A stretch of 63,973 bases of DNA, filler included, from Hausera hauseri (lineage: Eukaryota), in assembly GCA_046269625.1 (NCBI GenBank). It is 9 parts of 9 records of this genome, joined end to end, with 100 filler letters (N's around TTAATTAATTAA, not from the genome) between each part and the next. Parts side by side here need not be neighbours in the genome. Positions count along the whole stretch, not along the records: positions 27,619 to 36,747 come from JBJURY010452134.1; 8 more parts are not named here. One strand, 5' to 3'. Every line of letters begins with the position of its first letter. Positions within the stretch are counted from its first letter, which is position 1. A program made the translations under genes and the position numbers. The notes beneath the pieces were generated by a model, which was not told the DNA's origin, did not search any database, and saw only the letters and a list, made by a program, of their open reading frames with translations. This document shows, in pieces, positions 5,982-56,995 of the stretch.

Positions 5982-5984
5982 CGG

Positions 5985-7255: not shown

Positions 7256-7444
7256 CTTACCAGGATAGACAGAGGACCTTATGAAGTGATTAAAACTACA
7301 TCAACCACGGTTTATATAAATAAAAACGGCAAAGAGGAAGTCATATCAATTCAAAGAGTAGTCAAAACGGAAATAAGACCAAACAAACGCTATAATTTCT
7401 GTTAGAACAAAGCAAAATTAGACTATACAAACAAAGAAAAGTAA

Positions 7445-8791: not shown

Positions 8792-8896
8792 CAATTATAG
8801 ATCAGGTTATCCTATAATCAGAAATAGAAAATGTTTTGCTTCAAAACAATGATCTGTCTTAGGATTAATCTTTATTTTTATTTTAGCAGAGTAAGT

Positions 8897-9980: not shown

Positions 9981-10803
9981 AGCCCAGAGACCTATACAAA
10001 ACGTGATCTTTGACAGCAACCCAAAGATTTTATTGCAAAAATTCCAAAAAGGGTTTAACGAATACCCGATACATAGACAAATTAAACCTCAAGAACATAG
10101 TAGCTTCCAAATAACCATTCGGAATATTCCAGTCCAATTGCTCAAACAGGAAGGATCGAAGGGGAACAACCAGCAAGGCTTATCCACCAGCCATCGCCAA
10201 ACTGATCACGGACCGACCTCCCAAAAAGCAACGGAAAACTGAAACTAAACACTGGAGAACCTCATAGAGGACAAAAAACAAAATCCTCCTTCTTCGAATA
10301 TATCATTAGGAAGAAGAGTAAGACCAGCAAAAACTACCCCGAAGAAGTGAGACAGTCTAATAGCAGTCTTATACCAAGTATTAAAGAAAACGCGACAAAA
10401 CCCAAGGATAAACCAAAAAGGCGGAAAGCCGAAAATTCCAACGAACAAAAAAGGAGAATGTGAACTCCCGAGGATGAAAATAATTGATAAGAACCAGCCC
10501 CTATTGTAGTGACCGAATTCGGTCAAGTTAAAGAATACACCAGAGTGCTCGTTATGGCCGAATATTACAGCAAGGGCTAGATAAAGGAAGCCATAATCTA
10601 TGTATCCACTGTCCCTAGAAGAATTGTAAGCGGAAACGGATACGCCCGAGAAGACATAACCATTGGTAAATACCTAGCCCCGATATTTCAATCAAAGAAC
10701 GGAACAAACCATCTGACTATCCCAATGGAAACTCAAGTTTGAGTGCAACTTAAGAGATATCACAAGAGAACGGGAATACCCGATTTGGATAAACAAGAAA
10801 TCG

Positions 10804-11154
10804 TTGAATGGACGTTGGTCACCGTGTCAGATGACCCTAAGTAAAGCTCCAGACCCCAAACAAAAACGGCTATATGGATGCTTATACCAAGACAAAAAAG
10901 GACTAGTATTCGAGCGAATTGAAGTTGACGAAAATCTCGTGGATATGGACGGAGGCGAGAAAGAAGAACGCCCCGTTTGCGACGCGAACCTATATCAAGG
11001 ACTTGTGGTGTTAGATAATAAGGATTGCACCCATAAATACTGTCGGTATTGCTTGGAAACGTGGACCCTGAGAAATGGGAAGACGACCTGCCCAGTATGT
11101 AGGGCTGAAACTACGAGGTTGCGTTACTTCTCAAATGGAGAAAGTAAAAAATAG
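10804..11154 (+). CDS. RING-HC finger protein fragment
   Basis: RPVC-x15-CTHKYCRYC-x12-CPVCR; first ligand is Arg (CGC, one change from TGC). Confidence 0.8.
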   Translation: MNGRWSPCQMTLSKAPDPKQKRLYGCLYQDKKGLVFERIEVDENLVDMDGGEKEERPVCDANLYQGLVVLDNKDCTHKYCRYCLETWTLRNGKTTCPVCRAETTRLRYFSNGESKK

Positions 11155-11320
11155 TGGATATTTCCCAAAAAAGCTACTACATCGTACCACTTCGATTTGA
11201 GATCTCCACACGACGAAACAGATTCGGAAGCGGACTTGCGCGGACGAATGAACCGATTACGCGGCACCTCTTATGACGCAATGGGCACATCCGAGAGTAC
11301 CGTTTAGGGAGGATTAATCT

Positions 11321-11981
11321 TGTAAAAAGATCGAAAATCATAAATTTTATATATGTATATCAAACTGAAAATTAAATTGGCTAACCAGAATTAGTCAGTA
11401 AAATCGATTATATCCACAACTGTTAACTGGAAAATTCTCAGAATATTCCGATGAAATTAGTAAATGCATGCAGACAGCATTAGTTATTGGTTGGAATTAC
11501 TAGAAAAGTGGCTGAAAAATAATTACACAGAAATTGGACATCACCAACGGCTATATAAATTCGAATCAGTTAGAAGTCAAAGAAGAAAAATTGACGAGGA
11601 AAAAATTCAGTAACCTGTATTGACTAAAAAAGGACTTATATTCAGAAGTGATTCGATTCTACTGTATTGGCTTGTTATTCGGATTATGGGTATACTGTTT
11701 TTATTTGGTTAATAAATTGTATTTTCTAACACTCCTTATAGTTTTCCGTCGCTCCTTACGAGGAACTTGAACTACATTAAGGTTAAACTAAAATTAGAAT
11801 ATATAGTTAGGACTAGATTTTTGTTAACCGCAAGAAGTCGCACGCAGTACCAGTATTTAAAATTTAGTGCAATCATTCTAACGAGAACGTTAGAACGTAC
11901 CTGATCTTATTAATTTATTAATCGAAGTATTTACATTGTTATAGTTGGGTGTTTGATAGGACTCACCGTCAACTACTAACA
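11321..11981 (+). repeat. family B LTR (boundaries inferred)
   Basis: Purine tract AGGGAGGA at 11306-11313; TGT start; TATATAAA ~11552; AATAAA 11711; ends CA two nt before TGG. Confidence 0.6.
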
Positions 11982-11983
11982 AT

Positions 11984-12000
11984 TGGCTACCCTAGCAGGA
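11984..12000 (+). promoter_or_regulatory. primer binding site candidate
   Basis: TGGCTACCCTAGCAGGA; its reverse complement TCCTGC-TAGGGTA-G-CCA has tRNA 3'-end geometry (T-stem strand, 7-nt acceptor strand, G discriminator, CCA). Confidence 0.6.
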
Positions 12001-12418
12001 CAGTTTGCACTTGCTAGACTTGACTCTTAGTGAAAAATAACTACATTGGCGATCAGCGCTACCACATCAAATAATTGATTCTAGAATTGCTGTGAACTTA
12101 AAAATTCGGGATTTATAAGAAAACCTTCAGCAATTTAACGACATACTATTGATATAAGAACGAATATTGATAGATATAAGTCAGACGATAACCTAAACGT
12201 AATTCTAAACTGTAAGGAGAATATTAATCTATGCGAAACGCGCCACAAAGTTTACAGACAATATAAAACGTTGAGTAGGCGTACCTTATGAGACTAATTT
12301 AGTTAGCATTGAACTTATTGATTTAAACGCTGCTGGACAGCCTATAGAATTTAAAATTCCTGATAAGAGAATTAGAATCCGTAAGTTAACTAAGCAAAAT
12401 TTAATAAACGTTGAAAAC

Positions 12419-12501
12419 ATGGTCGAAAATCAAACAGTAGAGCAGAAGTTGGACATTTTAACATTAAAATCCCTGAATCTGCCGGCGTATGATGGAGACC
12501 C
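12419..12501 (+). CDS. gag: family B gag N-terminus (cut by the gap)
   Basis: MVENQTVEQKLDILTLKSLNLPAYDGDP; LPxY/FDG is typical of Gypsy Gag N-termini; lies downstream of the PBS. Confidence 0.6.
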
Positions 12502-12601: not shown

Positions 12602-15600
12602 ATGATATACTCACCAAGAGAACCTAAGAATATTGAAACTAGATCGACAGTTTGGGACAACCCAAGGTTAAAAACCTTCCAACATATTGAACTGCATATT
12701 AACAACCGGGAACCGCTAATTAGTACTCATAAAATGGAAGAACTGCTTGTAGAAAATAATGAATGATATCCAAACGAGGAGTTAAGGCAGTTGTCGGAAA
12801 ACATAATATCCGCCCCAGAAGTAAGAATAAACGGACACAAAATATCAGTGACTAAACATTCGAAAGTTGCATCAAACTGTTTTGCAACCGTGATAGAAAG
12901 AAGACCTTTAGCCAAAATCATTATTGAAAATTGGGAAGTTTATGCGCTAATTGATACGGGTTCCGAAATGTATTACATCAGAAATGATTCAGTACGTCAA
13001 ACGCTAAGAGGACAGTTATGTTCGCCGTCTACGAAAGATCCAGGCAGTACGGGAGCTTTTGGCCAAACGTCGAAACCAATGTTTAAATGGAACAAAGAAG
13101 TCCATTTAATTGGACGAACATTTCGGCATGAATTTGCAATCATGGAACATTTAACTAATGATGTCGTTCTAGGATGCGATTTATTGAAAAGGCTACCAAA
13201 TATAGCAGACGACTTACAAACAGGAAGGCTAATTGAGATTAAACCGAAAAGGGGCGTGAAGAACGCTAAGGATAGAAAATTCGGGGAAGTGTGGATACCA
13301 GTAGACAAGAACATTCCGCCGAGTACGGAGATAATAATGTACGCACAGATTCAGAAAAATGACGATCAGCCAGTATATTTTGAGCCAAGGGAAACGTTAA
13401 ATCCTTATATAACACTCAGTAATGTACTAACAAAAGTACACTCCGGTCGTGTACCAATTAGAATAGCTAATAACGCGCAGACTCCTGTCAAGCTCCATGC
13501 TTATACTACTTTAAGAGACACGTATAGAGTATTGTCGATAACTATCGAAGAAAAACCTTATAAATATGCTGAATTTCCACCTCACGTCCAAACCAAGTTT
13601 TTACCTGAGTCTTACTGTCGGTTCTATGAACTATTGTTTAGATATAAATCGATTATCGCTAAGGACGAGGAAGATATAGGTAGAGTGAAAGCGTTAAAAT
13701 TGACTGCTCCGCTTAAGAAAAAGCCTGGTTCGAATGAAGAAATAGATCTGGAGGGTCAGAAGATGCCAAAATGGTACTTTCCACCACATTTATTAAGGCC
13801 TGAAATAACTAAAGAAGTTGAACGAATGCTTAAGGCAGATATAATTAGACCCAGTTACAGATCCTGGTACTCGCCTATCCTGATGGTTAAAAAGAAGGGC
13901 ACTACGAAGCACCGATTTTGTATCGATTACAGAGCTCTAAATAATCTTATGATAAAGGATTCTTTCCCATTGCCATCAGTGAAAGAGGCATTAGACCAAC
14001 TATCGGGAGCAAAATGTTTACCACTCTGGACTTACAATCCGGATATTGGCAAGTGGAAATAGAGGACGAAGATCGCTACAAAACGGCGTTCAAGACACAT
14101 GATGGAGTGTATGAATTTAACGTTATGCCGTTCGGTATTACTACTGGACCGGCCATATTTACGAGAATGATGAACAAAATGTTAATGGAATTGGATCATG
14201 CTTTTGCATATCTAGATGACGTAATGATAGCATCAAAAACGGAAGAGGAACACTTAAAGGATATTGAACATACGCTGATGCGTTTGGAACAAGCCGGCCT
14301 AAAATTAAATCCAAAGAAATGCACATGGGCTCAAAATGCAGTATCCTACCTTGGCCATATAGTTGGAGAGGGAGGATCCAAACCAGATAAGTCGTTGTTG
14401 AATAAAATATCGGATTAAATAGAACCACAAAATCTGAAAGAGTTGAGACACTGGTTAGGACTCTGCGGATATTACGCAACCTACATACCAGATAACTCAA
14501 AGATTAATGCGCCTCTATATTGTCTGCTTAAAAAGGGATTAAATGGAAATGGACAGACGTCGAACAGAAAGCCTTTGACAAGATGAAGAAGATATTTACG
14601 AGCGAACCTGTTTTACGGTACCCGGATTTTAGCTTACCGTTTATAATTAAGACAAATGCCAGTAAGGAATGTATTGGATATGAGTTAGCGCAGAAAAGAG
14701 AGGATGAAGAATTGGAACATCCGATTGCTTATGGAGGCCGTTCTTTGAAGAAAGCTAAAAAAAACTATTCCGTTACCGAGCTAGAGACTCTAGCCGTGAA
14801 AGAAGCACTGCGTCTTTTTAATGTGTATGTTTACGGTCAGAAAATTATAATCGTCACCGATCATAAGGCCGTTACAACCTTAAGAGCTGAGCAAATAACC
14901 TGACATGCAGACTATACAGATGGATCAAAGAAATCTCCAGATACAATATCGAATTCCAGTATAAGCCGGGAAACAAACATGTAGACGCTGATACACTATC
15001 GAGATTAAAGACTATGACAAGCGCAATCATTGTGTTGAAGAAAGGCCAACTTGAGGAAATAATAGACCGCCAACGCGCGTTAACTATATATAAGGCGATC
15101 AAAATTTCAAAAGAACAGAAAAAGGGTAATGTTATCCAGCAGATTATAGAATTTGCTAAGAAATATGTTATGCCAAAAGGACGACAGTTAAAGAAACATT
15201 TACACAGATATGAACATAAATACTGCGTCTTAAATGACGGGAACGAAGGAGGTATTCTATATTACGAAAGAAAAGAAAGGAAGTTGATAATTATTCCAAA
15301 GAGCTTACGAACCAAAGTATTGATGTCAGAACACGATTCATACTTAGCCGGACATATGTCCTGGAAAAAAACATTAGAAAGAACAATAAATAAATATTTT
15401 TGGCCGAGTATCTATATCGATGTAAAAAATTGGATAAATGCTTGCGAAGTATGTGCGACTAAACAAAAGAAAACGAAAAACTACATGGCGGAATTGAAAC
15501 CAATTAATGTGCCCGATAAATCCATGCAAGCTATGTCAATGGATATCGTAGGGCCTCTGCCTACGACCCACAAGAACAATAAGTATATCTTAACGTGTAT

Positions 15601-16390
15601 TGATTGATTAACTCACTTCGTCGAGCTGATAAAATTAATTGATCAAAAGACAGAGACTTTAGCAGAAGCAGTAGTAAGAAAAATTATTTGTCGATACGGG
15701 CTCCCAGATCAGATACTCACGGATCGAAGAAGAAATTTTATTAGTGAACTTTTCGAGAAGATTACCAAAATATTTGAAATCGAACGTTTAACAATTACTG
15801 CATATTATCCTCAGTGTAATGGAATGGTCGAACAGATGAATGCTACCGTCATACGTATATTATCAACAGTAGTCGCGAAAGATCAAAAAGATTGGGACGA
15901 ATTTTTGGTAGGAACGCAGTTTGCAATTAATACCACACCACATCCAGCGACAGGATTTACACCATTTTTTTATGATGTACGGACGTGAAGCCGTGTTTCC
16001 CACAGATTTTGGAATGATGCCATACACAGTCAGTTCCAAAGATTTAGAACAGAATTTCCCAAAAGTATTACAAATGCGGTTGCAAAAGTGTTGGGAAATC
16101 GCTAAAGAACTATCCCAAGAATATCAAGAGCAGTTTAAGAAACAATATGGTAAGAAAGCAAAACCGCATGATATAGAACAAGGGAATTGGATTTACGTAC
16201 ATTATCCGGTAGCCAAAAAGGGAGCCTCACTAAAATTGACTCGTACGGGTAGAGGACCATATGAAGTCACCAGAGTCACACCAACCACAGTGCATATGAA
16301 CAAAAATGGAAAATAAGAAATTGCGTCAATACAGGGAGTTGTCAAGACAGAAATACGACCCAGCAAACGTTATAATTTACGTCAACGTGA
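12602..16390 (+). pseudogene. pol: family B pol copy B2 (PR-RT-RH-IN)
   Basis: ALIDTGSE, RFCIDYRALN, LDLQSGYWQV, YLDDVMI, NYSVTELETLAV, HDSYLAGH..CEVC, MDIVGPLP, GRGPYEV, KRYNLR. Confidence 0.95.
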
Positions 16391-16399
16391 GGTAAAAAA

Positions 16400-17832
16400 T
16401 TCATCAATAATTACTAGACCAATATCATATGTTCAGATAGCCTTAGTATTATCGTTGATTGCCTCTTACATCCCAAAAATACAAGCACAATGATGGCACG
16501 ATAAATCTTCGTTAGGAGATATATAAAATTCGGAAAAGTGGATCAAAATCGGAAGTAGTCGAATCGGAAAAGAAACCAACAGCCGAAGAAATTCGAAAAC
16601 AAGAAGACACCAAATTATTACAATCATTGACAATCCACTATTATTCAGCAAACTCCGTATGCGTTGGATTTAAGACTTGAAAACCGCATTACGATTTCGG
16701 AAGGTTTCAAATTGTCTTGCTTGACTTAGCCACAAAAGCCACCAAAAATTGTGATTTGAAACTCGGAGAAAATATTCAGTGCTGCGATATAGATTTTGGA
16801 CACACGTATAACCTCACCTATCGTCTATACTTACCAGATTCATCTGAAGTTTATATTGAAACAAAGCCACATTCTCAATTAATCATTCTCGCATGGAACA
16901 AACATTATGAAGTAAAACTGAATGAAATATTACATTCTACGGACCCAGATATAAGAATACTAGACGAAAATATCCAGAGAATCGCTGTGAATAAGGACAA
17001 ACAATGTATTCAAGTGGACGCTAGAAGAGGATTAACCTTCAGTCAAAAAATTAGTATCACGTTTGAAGCAACAGTTGGACCGACTCCGAAAATAGACTAT
17101 TGTTCAATTCGAGCAGGCGTGCAAAACCCATGCTGTAAAATACCCGTAAACCAAGACTTCAACATAAGATTCGACCTATATGAAGTACGGCCTAATAAAC
17201 CAAGTATACAATTTTGAACTTACTACCCAGAAAATAAAATTTGGAAAATTTCGGCAGAGACAACTACAAGAAGACCGATAACTCAAGTCAATACCATTAC
17301 GGCAACCGTTACGTTGGCCAGTGTGCCGGATAGAGTATTAGAAAGCATTCCTATTAAATATTCGGTATATCGGTCTAAAATCGTGTTCTTCGTAGAAGGA
17401 AAACAAAACTACAATGTATACATAAATTGTCGGACGACGTATAATAATCAAGTGGTGACGCTATTTAAAAATACTTATCAAACAGAGTGCAGCTTATTAA
17501 AACCACAAACCGAATATATAGTACAAGTATTTGCAGAAAATAAACAAAATCAGAAGATTACATTGCAAACTTTAGATGCAATTCGCTCAGAATCCCATAC
17601 ATACGAGGACATAGATGAGCAGACCACAAATCCAATCACTACACAAGCTCCAATGGGATTAACTACGCTACCAATTGCACCTATCTCCATACTGTCAACG
17701 TTTGTTCTAATTACACTAATTGCGATTTTTCGACTAGTCACCAAAAACTGTTGTTCTAAGAGTCATAAAAATTCAGAATGGGAACTAAGGGAATTGGCGA
17801 ACCCCGTAGACCCATATGATAAGATAACCTGA
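16400..17832 (+). pseudogene. FN3-like type I membrane protein (B2)
   Basis: Homologous to 7445..8791; CSLLKPQTEYIVQVFAEN fits the FN3 LxPxTxYxVxVxA consensus; TM segment and PYDKIT* tail. Confidence 0.78.
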
Positions 17833-17841
17833 CAATTACGG

Positions 17842-18487
17842 ATGAGGTTATTCTGTCATCAAACAAAGAATTGGTTTTGGTTTAAAACCATCCTTTGTTT
17901 TAAGATTAACCTTTATGTTCTTTTGTTCAGATTGGTAAGTACTCAGACCCAGATGGAACCAAGCCGAATTAGTATCGACGCCAAGGAAGTTCCGAGCCGA
18001 CTTAGGATCGATACGGAGGAAACGACCAGTCGACTTAGTATCGACGAGTTCTTACAGAAATATGTGACAGTCCGGATCCCAAATTCAAAGGCCGTCTATA
18101 GGCAAATTAACACCGAATTACAAGGGAAGAATTCTGTTTCATACGGGAAAGTTGGCGAAATCCTAAACGGTTTGAAAGGAACGACTGAGGAGGCCAGAGC
18201 CGTATATTTTTACGCATGGAGGGAAGACAAAGATGCTAGGACATACCCCTTTAAACCGATCGCTCAATATCAACCAGATAAAGAACAGACGATATATGTG
18301 CATTTGGCAGACGGGGAAATATACTATCGGCTGAAGGATCAAAAATGGGATTCTTTCCAAGGAAGGCAAAGCCGGTTTAGTACCTTTGTATTTAACAGTA
18401 GGAACCTCCGACATCACGAATTGGAATTTCGCGTAGCTGCACGGCCAGTAAAAATGATGATCAAAACAACGGAGGAAGAAACAATGA
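17842..18487 (+). CDS. accessory ORF N-terminal domain (B2), truncated before the exonuclease-like domain
   Basis: IYVHLADGEIYY and ELEFRVAARPVK are shared with B1, B3 and B5. Confidence 0.65.
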
Positions 18488-19518
18488 CTGTCTTGACTGT
18501 TTTGACATCATTTCTATTTAAGTGATCTGTCTTTTTAATCCCGGTTAAATCGAAAAATGTTTCTCTTACTCGTTTTCTCTGGTTTATTATCCTAGAGTAT
18601 GTTTCTTCCCGAATATTCTCGAATCGAAACTTCGATTGGAATCTCATACCCATAATCACCTTCGCCTTGATTTATAGCGATGATTTGTACATTACGTCCA
18701 TCTTGGAATAGTCTAAAAGGCTGATCTAGTTCTTCCTCCTTTGGATATTGCTGATATTTAAGGTAGGTAACTGCATATAGGGTGCTTCTTCATATGTAAC
18801 CTCAAACATGAGCTTTATTGGCAGTGCAGTTATTCGAAATTCCAATTCGTAATTGTACAGATCTCGGCTGCTTAAATAGAGAGTGCTGAAACGATACCGT
18901 TTCCCTTTGTTAACATCCCAATTTTTCCCCATTATGCGGTAGTACAATTCACCTTCCGCCAAGTGGATATAAATCCCTCGGTGGTATACTGGTTCATATT
19001 TAATCATATTTGTTAAGGAGCATCTGAACTTTGTCTTATTGCATAAAAGCCTCTAGTCCTGTTTTCTTCGGTTGTACCTTTCAGGTGATTGGGGATTTTA
19101 TTGGTTTGATTGAACTCGACTAATGTATTTTCATGCATTTCAGTAGTAATTTGTTAATTTGACAGTAGATGGACTTCGATTGTGGTATCAGAACTGTTAC
19201 ATATCTGTCCAGGAAATCATTGATATCGCATTCCTTGATATCGTTGTTTTCGGCTTTCATCGTCATAGCAATAGTTACGCTTCTAAAAATAAAAAAATTT
19301 AAGGTTAATCCTAAAACAGATCATTTTTCGAAAATAGAACTAATTCTCTGTTTTCTTGGTGGAATAACCTGATTTGTAATTATCAGGAAATTTCATCATA
19401 GGTTTCGTCTCGGGGTGCCATTACCCTTAATTCTCTTCCTTCGATTTTATGACGCTTATACTGGCAATTTTTGGTAACTAATCGAAAAATCGCAATTAAC
19501 ATGATTTGTGCATATAAT
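18488..19518 (-). mobile_element. family B copy B3, inverted: membrane-protein tail plus accessory/exonuclease-like ORF
   Basis: Minus strand reads LIAIFRLVTKNC..TYDEIS*, then IYIHLAEGELYY..ELEFRITALPIK and FDLTGIKK. Confidence 0.8.
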
Positions 19519-19618: not shown

Positions 19619-20573
19619 TGACGAAAAAATTTTTCGTCTTTTCTCTGCTTGCTTCTCTGTTAACGTGCAGATTTCCGATTTCATATCACTGGTGTAATCG
19701 CCAGTAAGAGAACTAGAAGATTCCATATCAATATATATTTATATATATATATATAATTGACATTATTCAAACAAATTATCTCATATTTTCTAACTATTAC
19801 CAACAAAGAAACACATTCATAACATTTAGCAATAAAGCTTTGGAAATTTTGCAGTGTTGCATATTCGGTACATCACTGGGTAAATATTTCAAGATACTGT
19901 CTTTTTCAAAAACTAATGAACGTAAGATTAATGTGCGTAACGGACAACTAAATAAATAACTACAAATATATAAATCATGCTTTAAGCGATATATAAACAT
20001 TAAGCTAAAAAGCATTTTTGGCACGCTGTCAGTAGTCTTCAAATAATTTTTGCGGAAACCTATATCATAATTTGTTTAAATAAAATTTTTGAATTCTTAA
20101 GCGTTTAAGAAAGAATGTAATGCTCAATGTGTGCAATATTGGCAATTTTCAATTTCTTCTCAGATATAAATACTGCGACTGTATTAACATTTCATGCAGT
20201 TATATAAAAATGAATATTATAACTGCTGAGCTTATCATAAAAGTCACAGTAATTGATATTTAACTTTTACCGACACTTAAACAATAAAATTTGTACCAGA
20301 TTATTTTATAGAACAATATTTGTTGAATAAAGTCTTGTTGTAAAGATGTATGGATAAACTTTTGAAACACTAAGATTAAAAATGTAAATCTTAAAAATAT
20401 AAATATAATTTATATCGACATATAAACCAATTAAAAACTACATAGAAATTAAAGTCAACATAATTTTTGTCTCGAAATAAAATTAAAATACACACGTGAA
20501 TATACACGAATCTTCAATTGGGTGAAATTGATTTTTTATGAAAAGAATTCAAATACAAAGTTTCTAATACACA

Positions 20574-21534
20574 ATGGTTAGTTCTTTTATATACCATCTG
20601 TTTTGTTTGTATGGCATCCAAGGTATACCATATGGTATTCAGTCAAGATTTCTACCAGTCTTTTTGCGATCTAAATCGTACTCTTTAACCGTTCTAGGAT
20701 TATTTAAAATACTTTACATTCCATAAACCTTGAAAACATTTTATGCTCCGGCCATTGATTTATTTTGGAATAAAATCGGATGGCTTAGGTTAAGTGTATT
20801 TTTACTTTTTTTAAATGCCGTTTTTATGTCACTGATAAATTGTGACTCGAGTTTTTTACTGATTTGTTTACTATTTACGTTCAATTTTTTCTGTGCCACC
20901 CAAGATGTTGCGTTGGACGGGATAATGAATGCAAAACTAACGCATGGTGAATTGGCAATAGGAAATATTGCTCAAGTTGTTGGATACAAATGCGGTGGTA
21001 TTGTTGGAGGTGGTCTCTTATTGTTTCTGAGTTATTATTTTGATTGGCATTTTTTATTCCTTTTAATTTCGGTTTTTTATTTTGCTGCATTTTTGTCGAC
21101 GTTTTTGTTGGATTTTTCTATCAAAGACAAACAATATGGTGGTATTTTTAATTTCAAAGAGTATTTTTCGCTTTTAAAGTCTAGTATTTATTCCGATTTT
21201 ACAATAACGGTTTCTGGATTTGTATTTATTTATAAATTGGGTGAACAAGGTGCATTAGCGTTGCTGCCGTTGTTTTTATTTGACAATGGAGTCAACATGA
21301 AGGATATCGGATTTTGGATCGGAATTGTTGGTCAGTTGGTGTCGATTTTCGGTTCATCATCTGCTTCGGTGTTTATGAAAAAGTAATGTTTATTTTTTCT
21401 GATTGTTTTTGATAATTTCTCCTTAAATAGAGGATTCTGGAATTCTTTATATTCCCTATCAATTACCAGTGTTATTTTGCATGTTCTCATTCTTCTGATG
21501 GTCGCAAATTATTCTACCGGTGGTGTCCATTTCT
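20574..21534 (+). pseudogene. MFSD3: MFS transporter MFSD3/AmpG-like, exons 20574-21382 and 21431-21534, one in-frame TAA
   Basis: LYGIQGIPYGIQSRFLPVFLR, ATQDVALDG, GNIAQVVGYKCG, YKLGEQGA; 48-nt GT..AG intron 21383-21430 restores frame; next donor GTAAGT at 21535; TAA at 20724 where Trp is expected. Confidence 0.8.
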
Positions 21535-27618: not shown

Positions 27619-30200
27619 TGTTTCGTTGCACAGACCTCACAAGCGTCCACCCAGTTTTTCACATCTATATAAACGCTTGGCCAGTATTACTTATTCAACA
27701 TCCTTTCTACACTTTTCTTCCATGACGTATGTCCAGCTAAATGTAAATCATGTTCTGCCATTAACAATTCCGTTCGTAATCCTTTTGGGATAACTACCAC
27801 TTTCCGTCCATTTCGTTCGTAATATAAAATATTGTCTTGATTCCATGCGTAATATTTGTGCCCGTGTCTCTGTAAGTGTTTCTTTAGCTGACGTCCCTTC
27901 GGTATTTCATCTAGCTCGGCAAATTTGACCATCTGTTGGATAACTATATCTTCAGCTTGTTCTGAAGAAATTCTGATTGTCTTATTTAGCTTTAAAGTTT
28001 GTTGTCGCTTGACTAATTCTTCGAGCTGAGCCTTCTTCATGGTAATACTTGTACTTGTTTTTGTTTTAAGTCTTGATAAAGCATCTGCGTCGACATGTTT
28101 GTTTCCGGGTTTATATCGGAATTCGATATTATATCGAGAGATTTCTTCGATTCATCGATTTAGTCTGCATGTCGGGTTATTGGCTCGTCTTTTCAATGTT
28201 GTAACAGCCTTGTGATCGGTAACTATTATAATTTTCTGCCCGTAGACATAGATATTAAAATTCCTTAAAGCTTCTTTCACGGCTAATGTCTCTAGTTTAG
28301 TGACTGAATAGTTTTCATCGGCTTTCTTAAGCGATCGTCCTCCATATGCAATTGGGTGTTCTAATTCTTCGTCTTCTCTTTTCTGAGCTAACTCGTAACC
28401 AATTCCTTCTTTACTTGCGTCTGTTTTAATTATAAATGGTAAATTAAAATCTGGGTATCTCAACACTGGTTCACTTGTTAGAATTTTCTTCATTTCGTCT
28501 AACGCTTTGTGTTCGACATCGGTCCATTTCCATTTGATACCTTTTTTAAATATCCGATATAGTGGCGCCTTTATTTTCGCATTGTTTGGCACATAAGTGG
28601 CATAATATCCACATAGGCCTAACCAGTGTCTTAATTCTTTCTGATTCTGTGGTTCCATACAATCCGATATTTTGTTTAGTAAAGATTTATTTGGTTTTGA
28701 CCCTCCTTCTCCATCTATATGTCCGAGATAGGATACAGCATTTTGTACCCATTTACATTTCTTTGGGTTCAGTTTTAATCCAGCCTGTTTTAACCGCATA
28801 AGAGTGTCTTTGATGTCCTTTAGGTGTTCTTCATCTGTTCTTGATGCTATCATTACATCGTCAAATTGTACGAACGCATGATCGAGTCTCACTAACATTT
28901 TATTCATCATTCTGGTGAATATTGCTGGGCCGGTTGTTATACTTAACGGCATGACGTTAAATTTGTAAACTCCGTCGTGCGTCTTAAACGCTGTTTTGTA
29001 GTGATCGTCTTCTTCAATTTCTACTTGCCAGTATCCTGATTGTAAATCCAGTGTAGCGAACCACTTCGCTCCTCATAATCTGTCTAACGCTTCTTTTACT
29101 GACGGTAGTGGAAATGAGTCTTTCATCATAAGTGTGTTCAGGGCTCTGTAATCTATATAGAATCTATGTTTCGTGGTACCCTTTTTCTTTACCATAATTA
29201 TTGGTAAGTACCAAGACCGATAGCTTGGTCATATTTTGACAGCCTTTAACATACGTTCCATCTCTTTGGTTATTTCGGGCCTCAATGAATGGGGCGGTGG
29301 ATACCATTTAGGCATCTTTTGCTCTTCCAAGTCAATCTCTTCATTGGAGCCAGGTTTCCTTTCTAATGGAATCGTTAGTCTTAGCGTTTTTGATTTGCCT
29401 ATGTCTTCCTAGTTTTAAACAATAATGCACTTATATTTGCATAATATTTCGTAAAACTGACAATATGCTTTTGGCAAAAATTTTACCTCAACATGAGATG
29501 GGAACTCGGCATATTTTTAGGGTTTTTCTTCGCTTGTTATTGCCGATACTTTATAAGTATGACCCAATGCAGTATTGGCGTACAACTTTAGGGGAGTCGG
29601 CGCATTATTCACTAATCTGACTGGTACTGTTCCTGTCGTTACTCTTGTCAAAATGTTACTGAGTATGATATTTGGGTTAACGTCTTCTTGTGGCTCGAAG
29701 TATACTGGTTGATCATCCTCTTCTTGGATCTGGACATAAATTAGCATTTTGGTTCTGGGCGGAATATTTTCATCGACGGGAATCCCTACTTCTTCCAGCT
29801 TTCTTCCTTTCTTTGTTTTAATCCCTTTCACTGGTCCCAATTCAAGTAGCTTTCCAATCTGCAAGTTTATTGCGATATTGGGTAATTGTTTCAGTATATC
29901 GCAACCTAACACTAAATCATCAGTTAATTGATCCATTACGGCAAACTCGTGTCGAAGGATTTGGCCCATTAATTGAACTAAGGGGCTGCATTTATATTTT
30001 GGTTTAGATTCTTGCCTGACGGCTCCTATGCTGCCTGGGTCTGACGACGATGTTAGCTGTAGTTGCTTTCATAGTGTCGGCGGTATTGATACTAACTTGA
30101 TGAACGATTTCTCTGATCCGGTGTCGATTAAGTCATAGACTTCCCAATCTTCAATGGTAACTTTTGTGAAGGGTCTCCCTTCCATAAGTGTTCCATAACA
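27619..30200 (-). pseudogene. pol: family B pol (B4)
   Basis: ORFs 30069..30665, 29517..29969, 28152..28952, 27687..28040; DLIDTGSE, FDDVMI, IKTDASKEGIG, HDLHLAGH. Confidence 0.93.
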
Positions 30201-30799
30201 ATTTGACACGTCCTTTGGTCGTTTAATTAAAGAAATCTTATGTCCGTTTATCGTTATTTCTGGTGATGAAATGATGTTCTCGGTCAACTGTTTCAGTTCT
30301 TCGTTAGGGTAGAAGTCGTTGATTGCTACGCTACCTGCGTTGCTTCTAATTAACGGTTCTTGTATTATTTGGTTTTGGAGCGATTTCATTTTTTGTGTTC
30401 CCCAAGATGTTGATCTTGTCTTTATATTAAGAGCTATTCTCTGCGAATACAATATCCTATGGTCATCTTCCGCTCGTCGTTGGTTAGTAATCTGCATTTT
30501 CTTCAATACTCCGTATTGTTTTGTTCCTTCATAAAGTTCCTCATAGCTAAAAGGTTTTCGACAGAAATCCGATTTGTATGACACCATAGGTGTTGTATCA
30601 CAATCTTCGCATATTGGAGCCGTTGGCGGCGCGATGGGCAAGTGTGTCTTGTTTACTGAATACATTTTATGTCTATTTTGTTTGAGGATTGCTTCTCCTC
30701 CCTTAGGCTCGTCATCATCGGAGACATTTCTTTGTTTTGTTAATTTCTTAGCTCTGCGTTCCGATAGAAACGTGGGTCTTGCTCGTCTTTTATAATTAT

Positions 30800-32650
30800 G
30801 ATAGCGACGTGGCGTTCAACGTCATTTTTCCATTGGTTTTCTTCGTATGCTTTAAGCATTTTGCCGAATGGTGTGATGATTGCAGTTAAAATCTTGCAGG
30901 AAAATCCTGCTAGCATGAATATTTTGTACCCGCTCGGATTACCGCTTTTACTAGTTGTACTAAGAAACAGATTGCTAAAAATCTAGATGCGGCTTGTCCA
31001 AAAATTAAAAATCTTCCACATATTTTGTAGAGTATTTCTGTGGTTACCCGTTGGTAATGGTTTACACCAAGTAAGGATTCCCATTTAGCCTGATATCGAG
31101 TATCGTCAACTACTGATGCCATAGCTCGATTTAATTCGTGTGTTCGTTGTCGTGGAAAAGCAAAGAATTGTCGAAAAGTTTCGATTTTTTAGGCCTGTAA
31201 ATACCTTTATGAGATGTATCCTGAAACTTGTCATCAGTAATTCCTTTTGCTAATTTAGTCCCAGTAAGTTTTTTAGGAATGATAGTAACGCCTCCATTAG
31301 GTAAGCTAACCCAATCTGGTTCGCTACGCCTAAACATTGGTTCACCCAGACTTGCCTTGCAATCCTTTAAGATGGTTGGTTGTGTCGCATTATCAAGCAA
31401 CACTTTAGTGAGGGGCATGGCTAGACGTGCAGTATTTTGGTATATTACAGGGAGCTCTTGTATGCATCGTTTTTCTTCGACATTAATTGGTACATCTCTT
31501 TTCTTGCATTCGTAGGTCAGTAGGACCTCGCCAGTAACTCGGCCGAAGATTCCTTCTCTTATAGGAATGATCGGTGAAGCTAACTCAATGTTCGCAGAAA
31601 TAAGAGCTAGTTTTGTCCTCATAATTTCCGTATCTAATTTATAGTCGTTGGTTATCATTTAATGATATAACTCGGTTATTCCGATTTGTCCTTTATAATC
31701 GTCTCGGTTTTTCAGATAATCTTCGATTCTAATGTCTTGCGTTTTTAAGTTGTAGGTTTTCGCGCTTATCTCCGTTTCTGCGACGAAGAACGCTTCGTAG
31801 TTAGTGGTGAACATTACTACTTCGCAACATGAAATCGTTTCCTTTTTATGAATTTCAATCCATGTTGATCAGAGATTAATATCGTAGGTGTATGATCCTC
31901 TGATACGTCTTCACGTGCTCTTGAACTGATGTCGGATTTGTCTACGTATCGTTTCACGGTAGTTTCATTAAATTTCAATTCCTTAATTTTAATAAAATTA
32001 CAACCTTTTCCAGCGGGCGGTTCCCATTTGACGATCGAACTTCTGAAAGCACAGGTTCCGTCCTGTATATGACATTTTTGATTATCGGTATATAGCTTAG
32101 TGACGCTATGGAACATCACTTTCTAGACTTGCATTTATGATTTGTAAAAGTCTACTACTACTACGTTTGCTTCCAGGCCCTTTCCAGTGTTGTATTTTTC
32201 TCCACTACGGTGCCCGTTATGCATATCTAACCTTCCACCTACTACCTTGTATTCCGTAATTATCTTTCCAGGCTGCATTTCTAGTTCCATACTATCCCAT
32301 TTCAATCTTCCGGTTTCTCTGGCCTGCTTGCAGTGTTGCCTTTTCTAATTTATTTGGATTGGATGGGTTGTTGGTTTAATTATTGAGGAGTGCCCATGCA
32401 TTATCCCACAGTGAAAAATCCTACGAGATCGTCTCAGCATACATTCCATGCCATCCAAAGATATCAACTCTTGTTGTTGATACAGGAAATAACTCTTCTC
32501 CTTTGTCTCAAATTTGTGTGGTCTGGAATCTCCGCACGCTTTTAAGTCCATTAATGAATATTTTTGTCCGAGCTTAAACCTATCACAATCGTAGACGGTG
32601 AGAGAACACCCATCTGTTTTATTAGCATCATTATAGTGAGTAGGCTGATT
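30800..32650 (-). pseudogene. env: chuvirus-like (class III) fusion glycoprotein / env
   Basis: In order: TVYDC..SLMDLKAC, RRIFHCGIMHGHSS, CHIQDGTC..VKW..C, GEVLLTYEC, CIQELPV..PLTKVL..C..PMF..W, GIY, then TM FLIFGQAASRFLAICFLVQLV. Order and spacing match chuviral glycoprotein motifs (YDC, CGMHSH, GEV..C, CY.ELPV). Confidence 0.8.
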
Positions 32651-33936
32651 AACCAACTGGATTCATTCTTTCGGTTGTTATTATCCGTTGTCGTCAAGTT
32701 CCGTATGATATCTCCTAGTCCATTATTACTGTTCCTATTATCTTTTTCCTTGTCAAATAATTTTAGCCAATTTATCTCATACGGAAGCTTTCTAGCTGCT
32801 TTTCGTGCCAAGCTTGTAGCTCGGTTCAGTTCATTCTCTCGAATTGAATTTGTCTTGATCGCCAAGTACAATAATACTTTTCTTAGCTCTTCTATCATAT
32901 GTTCCACCATAATTTTCTCAACTACTGCATTGTCAGTTAGGCTACTTTTTGGCAATTTGAAACGCGAACTTCTCGTTGTCCTGGCTGCGTTGAATATCGC
33001 CTTTTCTTTCTCATCTAATATATCGCCGCGAAGACTTGAATAGTTTACAATATGTATTAGGTTCTTCATTAACTCGTTTAACTCTTCATTGTCGGTGCTA
33101 AAAGTATGGATTGACATCTGTCTTAACTCTCTTATCTGTTTTCCATTATAGTCAATTTCTTCTAGGGGCTTTCTAGGTCTGCCGACTGGGCGTTTCGGTC
33201 TTGGAGCATTATCTGGTATTCCACTTAGCGGTACTAGATTCTTGTCGTATTGTTCCTTGTCTTCGAAATACATTGCCGCATCTCGTACACCCATGATTTT
33301 TCCTACGCACTGTTCCGTTTTAGCCTTCCGCGTGACTTCTTTTTTTGTTTGTTTATTTGCTAGCGTTACTACTATTCGATTTATTTCGTCGGGGATGATT
33401 CCTACGTCTATTAATTGTTCTAAATCGTCGAGTATTCTTCCTCTAAAGTAAAATCTGTAATTCAGTTCATTTGTTCCGCCGTTATTTAATAGCCATTCTC
33501 TTACGTCCTTCACGTAGGAGTGCGTGGTTAGCTCACGTTCTTTTTCGTTTATCCACTCGGATGATATCATTATTTTCATCGTTACCTCAGGTTTACCCTT
33601 CATGATTTTTGCATACTTCTTTATTAAAAGTTTCGGCACCGTGTTGTAAATTATGTTTTCATTGGATAACTTAGTCAAAGTTGGAATGAGTTGTCTGAGC
33701 TTATTTTCAGTCATATTCACATTAATTAATTCCATCAAGTCCTTCTCGGTTAACGCTGAGTCTAGGAGCATCGCCACATTGAATTTCCTGTTCTGCGGAT
33801 ACATTTCTGTTTTATCTAGGTGTACTGGAGTTACCGGATTTTCGGCCGTTATTTTTTCTAAATAATCATTCCATTCTGTTTTATTCCCAATATCTGGGAG
33901 TCCATAGTCTACTAGAGCTGTGTTCGTTCTTTGCAC
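32551..33936 (-). CDS. 461-aa polyprotein segment: ubiquitin-like domain, AT-hook, helical region, C-terminal signal-like segment
   Basis: [26 protein letters not shown] resembles ubiquitin [33 protein letters not shown] AT-hook; [12 protein letters not shown]. Confidence 0.7.
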   Translation of the reverse strand: [461 protein letters not shown]

Positions 33937-33978
33937 ATTTTCTTGAATTTCTTTTAGTCTTGGTTATATTTCTTTCAC

Positions 33979-36145
33979 CTACGTAGTTCGAAAACTTATT
34001 CGGTTTCCACAGGTATATTGAATTATTTTTAGTAGTTCGCATAATTCGTTAGAATTGATAAATCCCTTCTGGTGATAATCGGTTAGTTCGATGATTACGT
34101 CCCTTCGCCATCTCTGCACGAACTCTCGCTTATTTTTGATCTCTGATTCGGTAAAAGCGTATTTGATCCGATAGCTTTTAAACTCTTTTACCAATTCATC
34201 TAGCCTCTTTGCTCTTTGTTTCGTTCTGATGCACGTTTCTTCAACTTGTTGTAATTCGGGCATCAATTGCCTTATCTTCTCATCATTAATCTCCACCATT
34301 TCTACCAATAAGTAGGCTAGCCCATACATCTCATTTATAAATTTTGCGTCGGGATCTATTGCACCCAGCAATTTCTTTACGAACTTGGATTCTTCGACAT
34401 TAAGACGTTGGTTGTTTCATATTTTTGTCAAATGGGTCTGGCAATTCTGGTCCGTAGCGGCTATCCATTATCGTGGTTTGTGCAAGAATCTGACTGCCTC
34501 TATTAGGGCTACTCTATGTTCTGGGCAAATACCTAATGTTTCGATATCATGGATCGAAATCTTGTCGATAGGTTTCTCCGTTAAATGTTAAATTCCTTCT
34601 CGTCGGATGTTTCTTAACCTTGAGTAAAAATTTCAAGTCGTATTTCGCTTTTCTGTAAAGTTCGTTTCTTCGAAAATGTTATAGATTTCTTCCAATATTG
34701 TCATTTCTTGTTTCTTCTTCATAAAGTTTAATTGTCGTAATGATTCGAATCGTGTCCGGATGTCTATTTCTGTTTTTATGGTGTTTAAGTTACGTGTGCC
34801 TTCTTCTAGTTGAATTTTTACAGATGGTTCGCTTTCCGGAAATTCTTTATTACGGTTTTTTACTAATTTGCTTAATCTCGTTATTAGTTCGGACCATTCT
34901 GACAATTGATTGGCAATTATTGGCTTGGCTAATATTGCATCTTCTAATTCATCGTCTGGCTCTTTTATGAAGTTTATAAATTGGCTAACATAATTAAGCT
35001 CATCCTTATATTCGTCGAATTCTATGATACAAGCTTTTATTACATATTTGGTTTCTTCATTATTCACGAACATGATTTGATTTCTTAAACTATTGATCTG
35101 CAATCTTTTTTCATTCTCCATTTTGATGCGGCTCTCTAATTCCGCATATCGTCGGTTTCTGACAAAGGCAATTTTTATCATCTCCATTAAGGGAGGAATA
35201 TCTACTGGGTCTACACCCAATATTTCTAAATCAGTATTACTTCGATTGCTGACCTGTTGTTTTCTAAGCCGATTAATCATTGCATAACGTATCTCATCCA
35301 TTTTGCGCTCTAAGTTTCGGGTCACTCTTTTCAACTTAGAATTAGCTTTCAAGGTAGATAGCAGTGTTTGCGCTTCAGCGACTTTTACAACTACGACTTT
35401 TTTACAAGCGACTTTTACTCCACTCTTAATCCACGATTCTAATTCGTGGTTCCATTTTATCAACGTATTTCGTGGCGCCTATTCCGGTTGTTATAATTCG
35501 ATTGCTTCGTCTAGCTTCCCTTCGCTACATAATTTTAAACTTTTATATAATTTTTCCGCAAATTGTTGCTCTTTACCAGATATATCTGTTTGTTTACTGA
35601 TCTGTTTAAATCTCTCTAAATTGTGTCGGAATATCTCTGGATCGTAACATCTAATTCTCATTTTCTTTAATTCGTCGGCATTCTTCCATGAAAGTCGAAC
35701 TTTCCATTTTCTTGCATCCAGATAATTAATATCTTCCGTTTCTTCCTCACTAGCGGGAAGTGGACAGATTTCATTAATTTCGTCATTAACATTTATTATC
35801 TCTGGTGTTTTCAAGACTTCTGGAGTCCCTTTCTGACGTAACGAAAGTATCTGATGACGAGTCGTCTCTTAGGCTAGCAGTATAAAAATCTACTTTTTCT
35901 TCCGCGTCTTTCATTATGAGAGATCTTGAGTGAGTCTTGGATCTTCTCTTAGGCGATGGGCTTCTGCCTCTGTTCTTTGTAATTTTGAGGACTAAGGGCC
36001 CGATAAATTCACTTTCAACTTCATCTGTTATTTTGTCTGAGTTATGCATTACGGCTTCTAATTCTGTGTCTAAGTCTACATTTTGAGATGTTGATGGTTT
36101 CTCGGACTGAGCTATTCCTTGCGGGACAGACTTCTTACGTGCCAT
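33979..36145 (-). pseudogene. long charged/helical coding region of unknown function between gag and the Ubl domain
   Basis: Consecutive same-strand ORFs 35786..36145, 35491..35814, 34633..35463 and 33979..34371; the first is in frame with the Zn knuckle apart from isolated stops. Confidence 0.6.
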
Positions 36146-36399
36146 ATTAGTATTATTTGGGGCCAGTGCCTATTCTTCTTCGGTTTGTGGTTCTCTCAGT
36201 CCATGATAGACTTCCATTAGTCGTAATTTCTCTACATACTCTTTTCTAGCTTTTATGACTTGAGGATTAGTACTTTCGGCTAGGTTCCTTGCAGATCTAT
36301 GCAGATCTTGCATTTCAATGATCAGGCTTATATCACCTCGTTTACCCTAGATGGCTTCTAAATTATTTTTAATCATACTTCTTTTGTTTGGTTCAGTAA

Positions 36400-36747
36400 A
36401 TGTGACATTTCTAGGATTTGGGCATTACCTGGCGATATATCCTTCTTCACCACATGTAAAGCAAATTAAATTTCCATTCCGACCAATCCTTTGTCTGCCA
36501 TCCTCATTCACAGGCGATTTCGCTCTGTTTGTATTCTTATACTGGCCCTGTAACATCTGTCTATTGTCTCCATCATATCTATTATCATTATTCCGATTAT
36601 CCATATATTTGATATTAGGTTGGTAACTACAGTAGGGGAAAATGGCGGTTCTGGCCCACCCCCGGGGGGGTGGTAATCAATAAAGCGATTTTGCACATGT
36701 GCCGATCGGTAGTGCACCCGGAGCACTATTGATCCATAAAGTGCCTG
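36400..36747 (-). pseudogene. gag: family B gag C-terminus with degenerate CCHC knuckle
   Basis: LICFTCGEEGYIAR*CP (CX2CX4HX4C with His to Tyr), preceded by an Arg/Asn/Gln-rich stretch. Confidence 0.75.
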
Positions 36748-50335: not shown

Positions 50336-51274
<939 letters not shown>

Positions 51275-51826: not shown

Positions 51827-54800
51827 GCACCCTTATACTGCTTACTTAAAAAAGGAACTAAATGCAGATGGACGGACGTCTAACAGAAAGCCTTCGAAGA
51901 AATGAAGAAGATATTAACAAGTGAACCTGTTTTACGTTATCCAGACTTTAACTTACCTTTTATAATCAAGACAGAAGCCAGTAAAGAAGGCATTGGATAT
52001 GAATTAGCGCAGAAAAGAGAAGATGAAGAATAGGAACACCCGATTGCTTATGGGGGACGTTCTTTAAAAAAGGCCGAGAAAAATTATTCTGTTAATGAAT
52101 TAGAAACTCTAGCTGTAAAAGAAACACTTTGTCATTTCAGTGTGTACGTATATTGGAAGAAAATTATAATTGTCACCAATCACAAGGCCGTCACAACCTT
52201 AAAGGGCCGAGCAAATAACCCAACATGTAGACTTAACAGATGGATCGAAGAAATTTCCAGATATAATATCGAATTTCAATAAAGCCAGGAAATAAACATG
52301 TAGATGCCGATGCCTTATCAACATTAAAGACTAAAACTAGTGCGATTACAGTAATGAGGAAAAGTCAGCTGGAAGAAGTAATAGATCACCAACGCGCCTT
52401 AAAGATGGATAAAGTAATTAGAATCTCAATAGAACAAAGAAAGGATAAGGTTATTCAGCAGATTATAGAATTTTGCTAAAAGGGATATCATACCCAAAGG
52501 ACGGCAGTTAAAAAAACAATTATACAGACATGGACATAAATATTGTGTCCTGAACGGTAAAGGCAATGAGGATATTTTGTATTACAAACAAAAAGGAAAG
52601 AAATTAATAGTTAACCCAAAGAATTTACGAAACCGAAATTTTAACTTCAGAACATGATTCATATTTGGCCGGACATATGTCCTGGAAGAAAACACTAGAA
52701 AAAGTAATGAATAAATATTTTTGGCCTAGTATCTACATTGATGTAAAAATTGGGTAAATGCATGCGAAGTATGTGCCACTAAGCAAATGAAGACGAAAAA
52801 CTATATGGCCGAATTAAAGCCAATTAATGTGCCGATAGACCTATGAAGGCCATGTCTACGGATATTGTAAAACCCCTTCCTACAACTCACAAGAACAGTA
52901 AATATATCTTAACGTGTATCGATCGGTTAACTCATTTTGTTCAGTTTATAGCATTAATTGATCAAAAGGCGGAAACCTTAGCAGAATCTGTAGTAAAAAG
53001 AATTATTTGCCGATACGGACCTCCAGACCAAATACTCACCGATAGAGAAAGAAATTTCACAAGCGAACTATTCGAGAAAATCACGAAGATTTTCGAAATC
53101 GAACGACTAAAAACTACTGCATATCATACTCAGTGCAACGGAGTGGTCGAATGGATGAATGCCACCGTCATACGCATATTATCAACAGTAGTAGCAAAGG
53201 ACCAAAAGGATTGGGACGAGTTTTTAGAAGGAACCCAATTTGAAATTAACACCACACCACACCCAGCGACAGGATTCACTCCATTTTTCATAATGTATAG
53301 ACGTGAAGCCGTGTTACCCATGGACTTAGGAATGATGCCATACACGGTTAATCCCGAAGAATTAGAACAAAACTTCGCGGAAGTCTTACAAACACGGTTG
53401 CGGAAGTGTTGGGAAATCTCTAAAGAATTATCCCAAGAATACCAAGAGCAGTTTAAAAGCAATATGATAAGGAAGCAAAACCTCATAATATAGAACAAGG
53501 AAACTGGTTTTATGTGCATTATCCAGTAGCTAAAAAGGCACCTCATTGACTCGTACAGGCAGAGGACCGTACGAAGTTACCAGGGTGACGCCAACTACAG
53601 TATATATTAACAAAAATGGAAAGGAAGAAGTCGTGTCAATACAAAGAATTGTTAAGACAGAGATACGACCCAACAAACGTTACAACTTACGCCAACGCAA
53701 GAAAAAATCCTCCTCAATAATCATTAAACCGATCTCGTACGTTCAGATAGTTTTAGCATTATACTTAATTGCTTCTTTTATTCCGAAAACACAAACCAAA
53801 GGGTGGCACGATGAATCTACACTGAAAGATAATTACGTAACTAGGAAATGAGGAGCAAGATGAGAGGTTAGGAAAACGGAAAGAAAATCATCGGTCGAAG
53901 AAATTCAAAGGTCACTACAGTCAATGTCGATTCGCTATTACTCGTCCAACTCCACATGTGTTGGATTTAAGGTGCAGAAACCACATCCCAAATTTGGAAG
54001 ATTCCAAATCGTCTTAGATGATGTGATAACAAAGGAAACCAACAATTGTGACTTCGAGCTTGGAGACAACATGCAATGTTGGAACGCAGAATTCGGACGC
54101 ATTTATAACCTTACCTACCGTTTGTATCTACCAAACTTATCCAAAATCTATGACACAAGGCCACCATTTCAGCTAGTTATTCCTCCTCGGAACAAAAATC
54201 ATGGAGTATAACTAAAGGAAATGATGAGATCTACCAAACCAGACACAAAAATTTTAGACGGGAATATCCAGAGAATTTCGGTTAATAACGCAAAGCAGTG
54301 CATTCAGGTAGGCACCTGGATAGAGTTAACGATTAATCGAGAAATCAGTATCGGAATGATTCCGAAAATACAATATTGTTCTATTTGCACGGGTATACAA
54401 CACCCCTGCTGCAAACTACTTGTGAACCTAGAATTCAAAATAAAGTTTGACTTATACTAGATACGGCCTAACCGACCAAGTATACAATTACGAACTTACT
54501 ATGCAAAAAATAGAATTTGGAAAATTTTAGCGAAAACCACGACCAAAAAGATTAACCAAACTGTCACCACAAATAACATACCTAAAACAGAACTGGAGAG
54601 TATACTTATCAAATTTTCGTCCCATCAGTATAAAATCGTGTTCTTTGTAGAGAAGAAACAGAATTACGATATATACGTAAACTTTCGGACAACGCATAAC
54701 AACCAAATTGTAACATTATTTAAAAACACCGATCAAACAGAGTGTAATTTACTAAAACCGCAATCTGAATACATAGTACAAGATCATGCAGAGAACAAAC

Positions 54801-56946: not shown

Positions 56947-56995
56947 CCAAGATGAAAACAAATTAGATACTGAATTAAATGTTGTTGAAATAAAT

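Follow-up and report, generated by a model that had tools for sequence, protein, structure and literature searches.

The contig at positions 27619-36747 of the window (the whole stretch of DNA analyzed, 63,973 nucleotides with filler) is interpreted here, with considerable confidence, as one dead copy among many of a Ty3/gypsy element, likely from a flatworm, in which a chuvirus-like envelope glycoprotein (Env) is encoded between a zinc knuckle with an accessory region and the PR-RT-RNase H-integrase part, likely all within one polyprotein. The order of the parts, the assignment of the glycoprotein to its family by sequence, the gypsy type of pol, the multiplicity of the element and its decay are established by the analysis.

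The window consists of 9 contigs of 4-11 kb joined by spacers of the form N44-TTAATTAATTAA-N44; because these spacers are artificial, the contigs on either side of a spacer are not linked. The element copy with env occupies a 9.1 kb contig without gaps and is encoded on the minus strand, as are all of its features described below. One end of this contig falls inside gag and the other inside the integrase, and both ends of the element lie beyond it. The sequence-only reading had remarked that no second LTR or TSD is evident, and indeed the contig contains no LTR-sized or TSD-like repeats, the element ends being outside it; tandem repeats in the contig number zero, and the short repeats that it contains, direct or inverted, appear to be chance occurrences. 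An Rfam search yields no matches, and CpG is not depleted in the contigs of the window (observed/expected ratio of 0.84-1.12).

The env gene spans about 620 codons with a hydrophobic stretch at each end. Its broken ectodomain (30990..32600) is identified as chuvirus-like, or herpes-gB-type, by similarity to the profile PF24664 (Monjiviricetes fusion glycoprotein) and by a likeness to Smed_errantivirus that is apparent by eye. Three of the 15 ORF pieces scanned match this profile, all three being pieces of the glycoprotein, and the matches cover model positions 22-96 (E 1.5e-7), 340-493 (E 1.7e-9) and 484-569 (E 4.2e-6, which does not reach the curated cut-off), running from the N- to the C-terminus in strand order. 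With 31820-32605 translated as a single frame and its 3 stops replaced by X, the similarity extends over positions 22-226 (E 3.2e-12); a 60-aa piece between the matching stretches has no Pfam match. The profile search that had been suggested as a check thus recovers the glycoprotein in three collinear pieces. The motifs listed in the sequence-only reading are likewise all present in the translation, in the order given there and on one gap-free contig, namely YDC (32585-32593), HCGIMHGHS (32387-32413), C-x3-DGTC (32045-32074, with W at about 32024), GEVLLTYEC (31506-31532), CIQELPV (31446-31466) and GIY (31197-31205), and, together with the membrane helix-like stretches, they lie upstream of the protease motif LIDTGSE.

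The hydrophobic stretch at the N-terminal end of env (32602..32658, Kyte-Doolittle 1.65) resembles a signal anchor and is in frame with the accessory ORF, which continues directly into it; since no Met precedes this stretch, env has no start of its own. At the other end, two stretches of modest hydrophobicity (30955-31011 and 30866-30922, Kyte-Doolittle 1.63 and 1.78) are split by a frame change and, by analogy with the architecture of gB, are likely to be the membrane-proximal region and the transmembrane helix. Env in this copy has suffered frame changes at five places (near 32605, 31830, 31195, 30925 and 30810) and contains four stops. Its composition is close to that of the rest of the element, with a GC content of 0.39 vs 0.37-0.39 elsewhere and a codon-use correlation with the RT of 0.67 vs 0.68-0.78 for other element parts; the one compositional difference is the frequency of T at third positions, which is higher in env (0.30 vs 0.20-0.22).

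Homologue searches with the env pieces passed 0 of 669 and 0 of 475 candidates, a comparison with PDB sequences gave 0 matches, and 0 of 75 metagenome stretches passed. Among viral contigs, the one stretch of four that passed (L001) shows a 31-aa match with E 3e-4 and was rejected as chance. A single-sequence model of the ectodomain is poor (pLDDT 31.5), and a fold search with it gave 0 matches at E<=0.001; with no homologues found, such a model speaks neither for nor against the fold. The fold is likely that of class III, herpes-gB-type fusion proteins.

Upstream of env, the frame 32551..35868 is a long, decayed accessory frame of 1,105 codons that encodes mostly helical and charged sequence and contains 8 stops, compared to 139 and 85 in the two remaining frames of the minus strand. 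It is preceded by a basic, Ser/Arg-rich continuation of the Gag C-terminus (35786..36421), which contains stops and has no Pfam match, and by a damaged Gag-type CCHC zinc knuckle (36422..36463; PF00098, E 0.014, below the cut-off), in which the third ligand is not His and 1 stop is present. The capsid domain would sit past the contig end at 36747. The placement of gag upstream of env in the sequence-only reading is borne out to the extent of this knuckle, by which alone gag is represented, and the distance from the knuckle to the envelope is 1,253 codons. The accessory region of about 1,250 codons between the two was missed in that reading.

As a whole, the accessory region has no Pfam match and no PDB match; its last 470 aa give 0 matches among 1.84 billion representatives, and 0 of 83 metagenome stretches passed. 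The segment 33350..33594 probably encodes a ubiquitin/SUMO-like domain, as suggested by a Pfam hit to PF00240 below the cut-off (E 0.06-0.07) and by the PDB comparison, in which three of the four weak matches (E 0.16-0.96) are ubiquitin or ubiquitin-like proteins. A further segment (32745..33110), predicted to be all-helical in a poor single-sequence model (pLDDT 35; 0 matches at E<=0.001 in a fold search), occupies the place of the Bcl-2-like domain of the planarian Burro element but has no Bcl-2 match in PDB or Pfam. A basic motif at 33166..33198 was picked out by eye as AT-hook-like and has no Pfam match; this label, like the Bcl-2-like label of the helical domain, expresses a resemblance unaccompanied by a family match. 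By a similar resemblance seen by eye, 34480..34587 is a putative SAM-domain-like motif, again with no Pfam match. MATH, BIR and ankyrin domains are not detected by Pfam search in the contig, which ends inside the element.

Downstream of env, a basic cytoplasmic tail and spacer of about 225 codons (30150..30815) leads in an open frame into the retropepsin protease (29830..30150; LIDTGSE at 30111-30131, RVP E 0.1). The ORF that had been drawn from the tail region into the protease is confirmed and extended, as no stop interrupts the frame 30069-30815 between the tail and the end of the protease motif; a stop follows at 30069-30071, and the first Met of the frame is at 30665. The last 135 aa of the tail and spacer are 50% identical to a sibling element on contig 12602-19518, and the protease of a sibling copy gives an RVP match with E 7e-5. 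The protease is followed by a linker (29520..29800) at the place of the dUTPase-like domain of Burro, which has no Pfam match and is 23-27% identical to the corresponding linker of 5 out of 55 gypsy-type proteins; by the RT and RNase H (28155..29300; RVT_1 E 3e-26, RT_RNaseH_2 E 2e-31); and by a bridge region with the start of the integrase zinc finger, cut at the contig end (27619..28151; Integrase_H2C2 E 0.003). The RT catalytic motif is damaged and stops are present in pol also; in the sibling copies, the integrase is complete. The order protease-RT-RNase H-integrase agrees with the relatives of the RT, 55 gypsy-type polyproteins at E<=1e-40 and 30-44% identity, whose domain sets are of the gypsy type and whose names include 17.6, Ty3-I and K02A2.6-like; four of the nearest, inspected by eye, look like regular gag-pol or pol proteins and contain no glycoprotein. 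As these relatives are gypsy-type and at most 44% identical, the element represents a distant Ty3/gypsy lineage and not BEL/Pao. The BEL/Pao identity was considered and rejected, the domains and relatives of pol being only of the gypsy type.

From this arrangement, we infer a single reading frame, with the topology, cleavage and particle formation outlined next. A single polyprotein, Gag-accessory-Env-PR-RT-RH-IN, would be produced, with cytosolic synthesis of Gag and the accessory domains. Translocation of the ectodomain into the ER would be driven by the internal hydrophobic stretch at 32602-32658, and the C-terminal membrane helix would bring the chain back to the cytosol, so that the protease, RT and integrase remain attached to the tail of Env. 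Cleavage by signal peptidase and by the protease of the element would then release the individual proteins. In this scheme, Gag, Env and Pol would be produced one-to-one and tethered at one membrane, which would favor the budding of enveloped particles able to spread from cell to cell and into the germ line. Enveloped particles of Drosophila errantiviruses are known to move between cells and into the germ line, according to the survey of Chary and Hayashi (eLife 2026, PMC13524379).

Alternatively, Env could be made as a separate protein, through splicing, a programmed frameshift or read-through at a border, and the frame changes at both env borders in this copy (near 32605 and 30810) are compatible with such a scheme. 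So is the stoichiometry, given that a one-to-one ratio of Gag, Env and Pol is unusual in retroviruses. However, other copies carry indels relative to this one at both borders (rows near 32605 and 30804, supported by 11 and 10 contigs, respectively, of the DNA run described below), so that the breaks differ between copies; no initiator Met lies ahead of the hydrophobic stretch; and env is in frame in Burro, as described by Arkhipova and Yushenova (2019, PMC6431247). Separate synthesis of Env is accordingly judged improbable, and the single polyprotein is retained as the preferred reading.

The origin of env is a distinct question from its layout. With the layout unchanged, env could have been captured independently and fairly recently from a chu-like virus instead of descending from an old flatworm GAG-ENV-POL stock. 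The slightly different third-position usage of env and the failure of the searches to find close relatives of env or RT would fit this scenario, as would the report that GAG-ENV-POL elements are not monophyletic (PMC13524379). In contrast, the motifs of this env agree better, by eye, with Schmidtea envelopes than with those of mosquito BEL elements. The element resembles Smed_errantivirus_1-6 in gene order, gypsy pol, env motifs and cysteine spacing (by eye) and the presence of many copies; in the six Smed rows for domains I-II, matches are seen by eye to Y..YQ, C, HCG.H.H.S, VVV.[DE].Y, TPT...S...G[LM][KR]F[IL][KR] and C....TNY. Furthermore, a probable ubiquitin-like domain is located upstream, as in Burro, and an ancient acquisition has been argued by Chary and Hayashi (PMC13524379). 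Recent capture is therefore considered unlikely, and a parallel with a separate chuvirus capture of the mosquito BEL/Pao kind, implied in the sequence-only reading, is unneeded. Descent from an older flatworm stock is preferred, and the likeness of env to Schmidtea elements, along with the undepleted CpG, points to a flatworm as the likely host.

Copies of the element were surveyed in the only public run found to contain the stretch, a DNA run (X1), which may be the source of the window itself and in which depth does not represent copy number; no RNA run is listed as containing the stretch. A comparison of X1 with the whole contig retrieves 30,420 contigs that cover 30 of 30 bins, with 1,404 at >=99% identity, 4,532 at 95-99%, 12,127 at 90-95% and 12,357 below 90%, and only 1% continue into unlike DNA. 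For the region 30000-33200, from within the protease to beyond the N-terminal end of env, there are 7,702 contigs, from under 90% to over 99% identity, again with 30 of 30 bins covered and 1% running on into unlike sequence. Piece starts or ends do not pile up anywhere along the contig, and in none of the joints listed (15 of 142 for the whole contig and 15 of 26 for 30000-33200) is env cleanly removed. One low-depth X1 contig joins 31152 and 35631 and so represents a copy from which about 4.5 kb are missing, with most of env and most of the accessory region. The element is thus multi-copy, with many divergent copies and env attached, as observed in one run of short contigs. The copy on contig 27619-36747 is dead. 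The insertion of a chuvirus glycoprotein cDNA in this one gypsy copy, or a misassembled or nested chimera, could be entertained because the best family for env is a negative-strand-virus fusion protein, because env and pol are spanned by no long assembly-independent sequence (the listed X1 pieces being at most 444 bases, none spans both) and because the two sibling elements in the window (71% DNA identity over 2,730 bases and 73% over 945) both begin downstream of the env position, but is very improbable in view of the X1 coverage, the lack of any TSD or repeat at the env borders, both of which are coding-frame joins, and the match between the composition of env and that of the element. Thus, the central claim of the sequence-only reading, a chuvirus-like fusion glycoprotein upstream of a Ty3/gypsy protease, is upheld by PF24664 and the X1 copies as a part of the element, and its proposed examination of other copies finds the segment in many of them, with no insertion borders.

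The window contains additional features of related elements. In three of these, an ORF follows the integrase on the plus strand (7448-8788, 16401-17829 and 53738-55078) and encodes a protein with a signal peptide, an ectodomain, a weak FN3-like part (E 0.026), a Thr-rich stalk and a membrane helix. Two of the three contigs with this ORF show 71-73% DNA identity to the pol of the env-bearing element. The ORFs are 30-58% identical to each other, with dN 0.23 vs dS 1.6 in the closest pair, and this membrane protein is under purifying selection. A further conserved ORF (8882-9589, 17833-18522 and 55114-55890, plus strand; 35-43% identical, with no Pfam match of weight) follows it in the three siblings. 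Further downstream, the sibling on contig 7256-12501 encodes a C3HC4 RING finger (10960-11154, plus strand; PF00097, E 2.8e-7), and downstream of the sibling on contig 51827-59688 there is an acidic open frame of 248 aa (56945-57688, plus strand) with no Pfam match. Contig 12602-19518 terminates in an inverted piece of this post-integrase region (18595-19514, minus strand), a second fragment of the family that faces the opposite way. Intron-poor pieces of host genes with in-frame stops are also present at 50468-51220 (minus strand; with Myb matches, presumably CDC5L-like), 5900-6800 (minus strand; MIOS-like) and 20560-21520 (plus strand; MFS/acetyl-CoA-transporter-like). The CDC5L-like and MIOS-like pieces adjoin another gypsy family, whose RT shares about 27% identity with that of the env-bearing element.

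The post-integrase membrane protein is a candidate attachment protein. According to the survey, it is not known how the gB-type env of such elements mediates entry in the absence of the herpesvirus partner proteins (PMC13524379), and the membrane protein could be tested as a candidate for the attachment function that is lacking. A broader scenario, which is tentative and rather doubtful, would place the element in a divergent Burro-type enveloped lineage of a parasitic (neodermatan) flatworm with a two-part entry system, in which a gB-type fusogen resides in the Gag-Pol polyprotein and a separate post-integrase FN3-like type-I protein serves for attachment, while ubiquitin-like, Bcl-2-like and RING modules handle host defenses. 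None of the 15 neodermatan rows retrieved from the genome table of the survey is marked as annotated, and one monogenean among them has a single ENV-POL pol count and no env (PMC13524379), so that an origin in a parasite would extend the known range modestly.

Comparison with known elements places the layout in a published context. The gag-env-pol order, called atypical for a Gypsy element in the sequence-only reading, is real and unusual but not novel: Ty3/gypsy 'ancient errantiviruses' with a GAG-ENV-POL order have been described in Nematoda, Bryozoa and Platyhelminthes, in several clades, with env reported to be only of the HSV/gB type in these three phyla (PMC13524379), and env precedes the protease in Burro also (PMC6431247). 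As this position of env in gypsy elements is already in print, the layout itself adds little; what is added is a further distant, heavily multiplied lineage, whose RT shares no more than 44% identity with any sequence retrieved. According to the same survey, chuvirus-like glycoproteins, a family structurally similar to herpesvirus gB, adjoin gypsy pol in 114 arthropod elements, and the 9 flatworm elements included come from three free-living genera, Macrostomum, Prostheceraeus and Schmidtea (PMC13524379). The short bridge after RNase H, with a helix and three strands, looks by eye like the 'mini' domain of the survey elements. The survey errantiviruses were chosen as intact by the inclusion rule, whereas the present copy is broken throughout. 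On the order of its parts and the family of its env, the element can be filed as a GAG-ENV-POL element of gB type, as a dead copy, with gag represented by the weak zinc knuckle. Mosquito BEL/Pao elements with a chuvirus-like glycoprotein (Dezordi et al. 2020, as cited in PMC13524379) encode the same glycoprotein family, and an HCG.[HF]SH-like motif is common to both (3 BEL rows, by eye). The pol of the present element is, unlike theirs, of the Ty3/gypsy type. In the mosquito elements, env follows pol.

A close parallel in architecture is also provided by Burro/GYPSM1, giant gypsy-like elements of planarians that exceed 30 kb with LTRs (Arkhipova and Yushenova 2019, PMC6431247; Grohme 2018 and Jurka 2007 as cited there). 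The terms 'Burro', 'Bcl', 'ubiquitin', 'in-frame' and 'polyprotein' are absent from the main text of PMC13524379. As described in PMC6431247, Burro encodes knuckles, a long accessory region with SUMO-like and BCL2-like domains and an env in frame before the protease, followed by a dUTPase-like domain between the protease and the RT; the account given there likens the Burro env to gypsy Env and to mononegavirus fusion proteins and does not call it class III. The present element shares with Burro the knuckle, the long accessory region, the probable ubiquitin/SUMO-like domain, a helical domain, the position of env before the protease and an extra domain between the protease and the RT. It differs in that the accessory region has no MATH, BIR or ankyrin matches, and the distance from the knuckle to the start of the integrase is about 3,000 codons, compared to the 4,873-aa ORF1 of Burro (PMC6431247). 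The element is not assigned to Burro here. With respect to the in-frame env of Burro, open frames reach both env borders here, and the breaks at these borders vary between copies. The Burro order of accessory domains is apparently kept, which would speak for an old age of the polyprotein design in flatworms.
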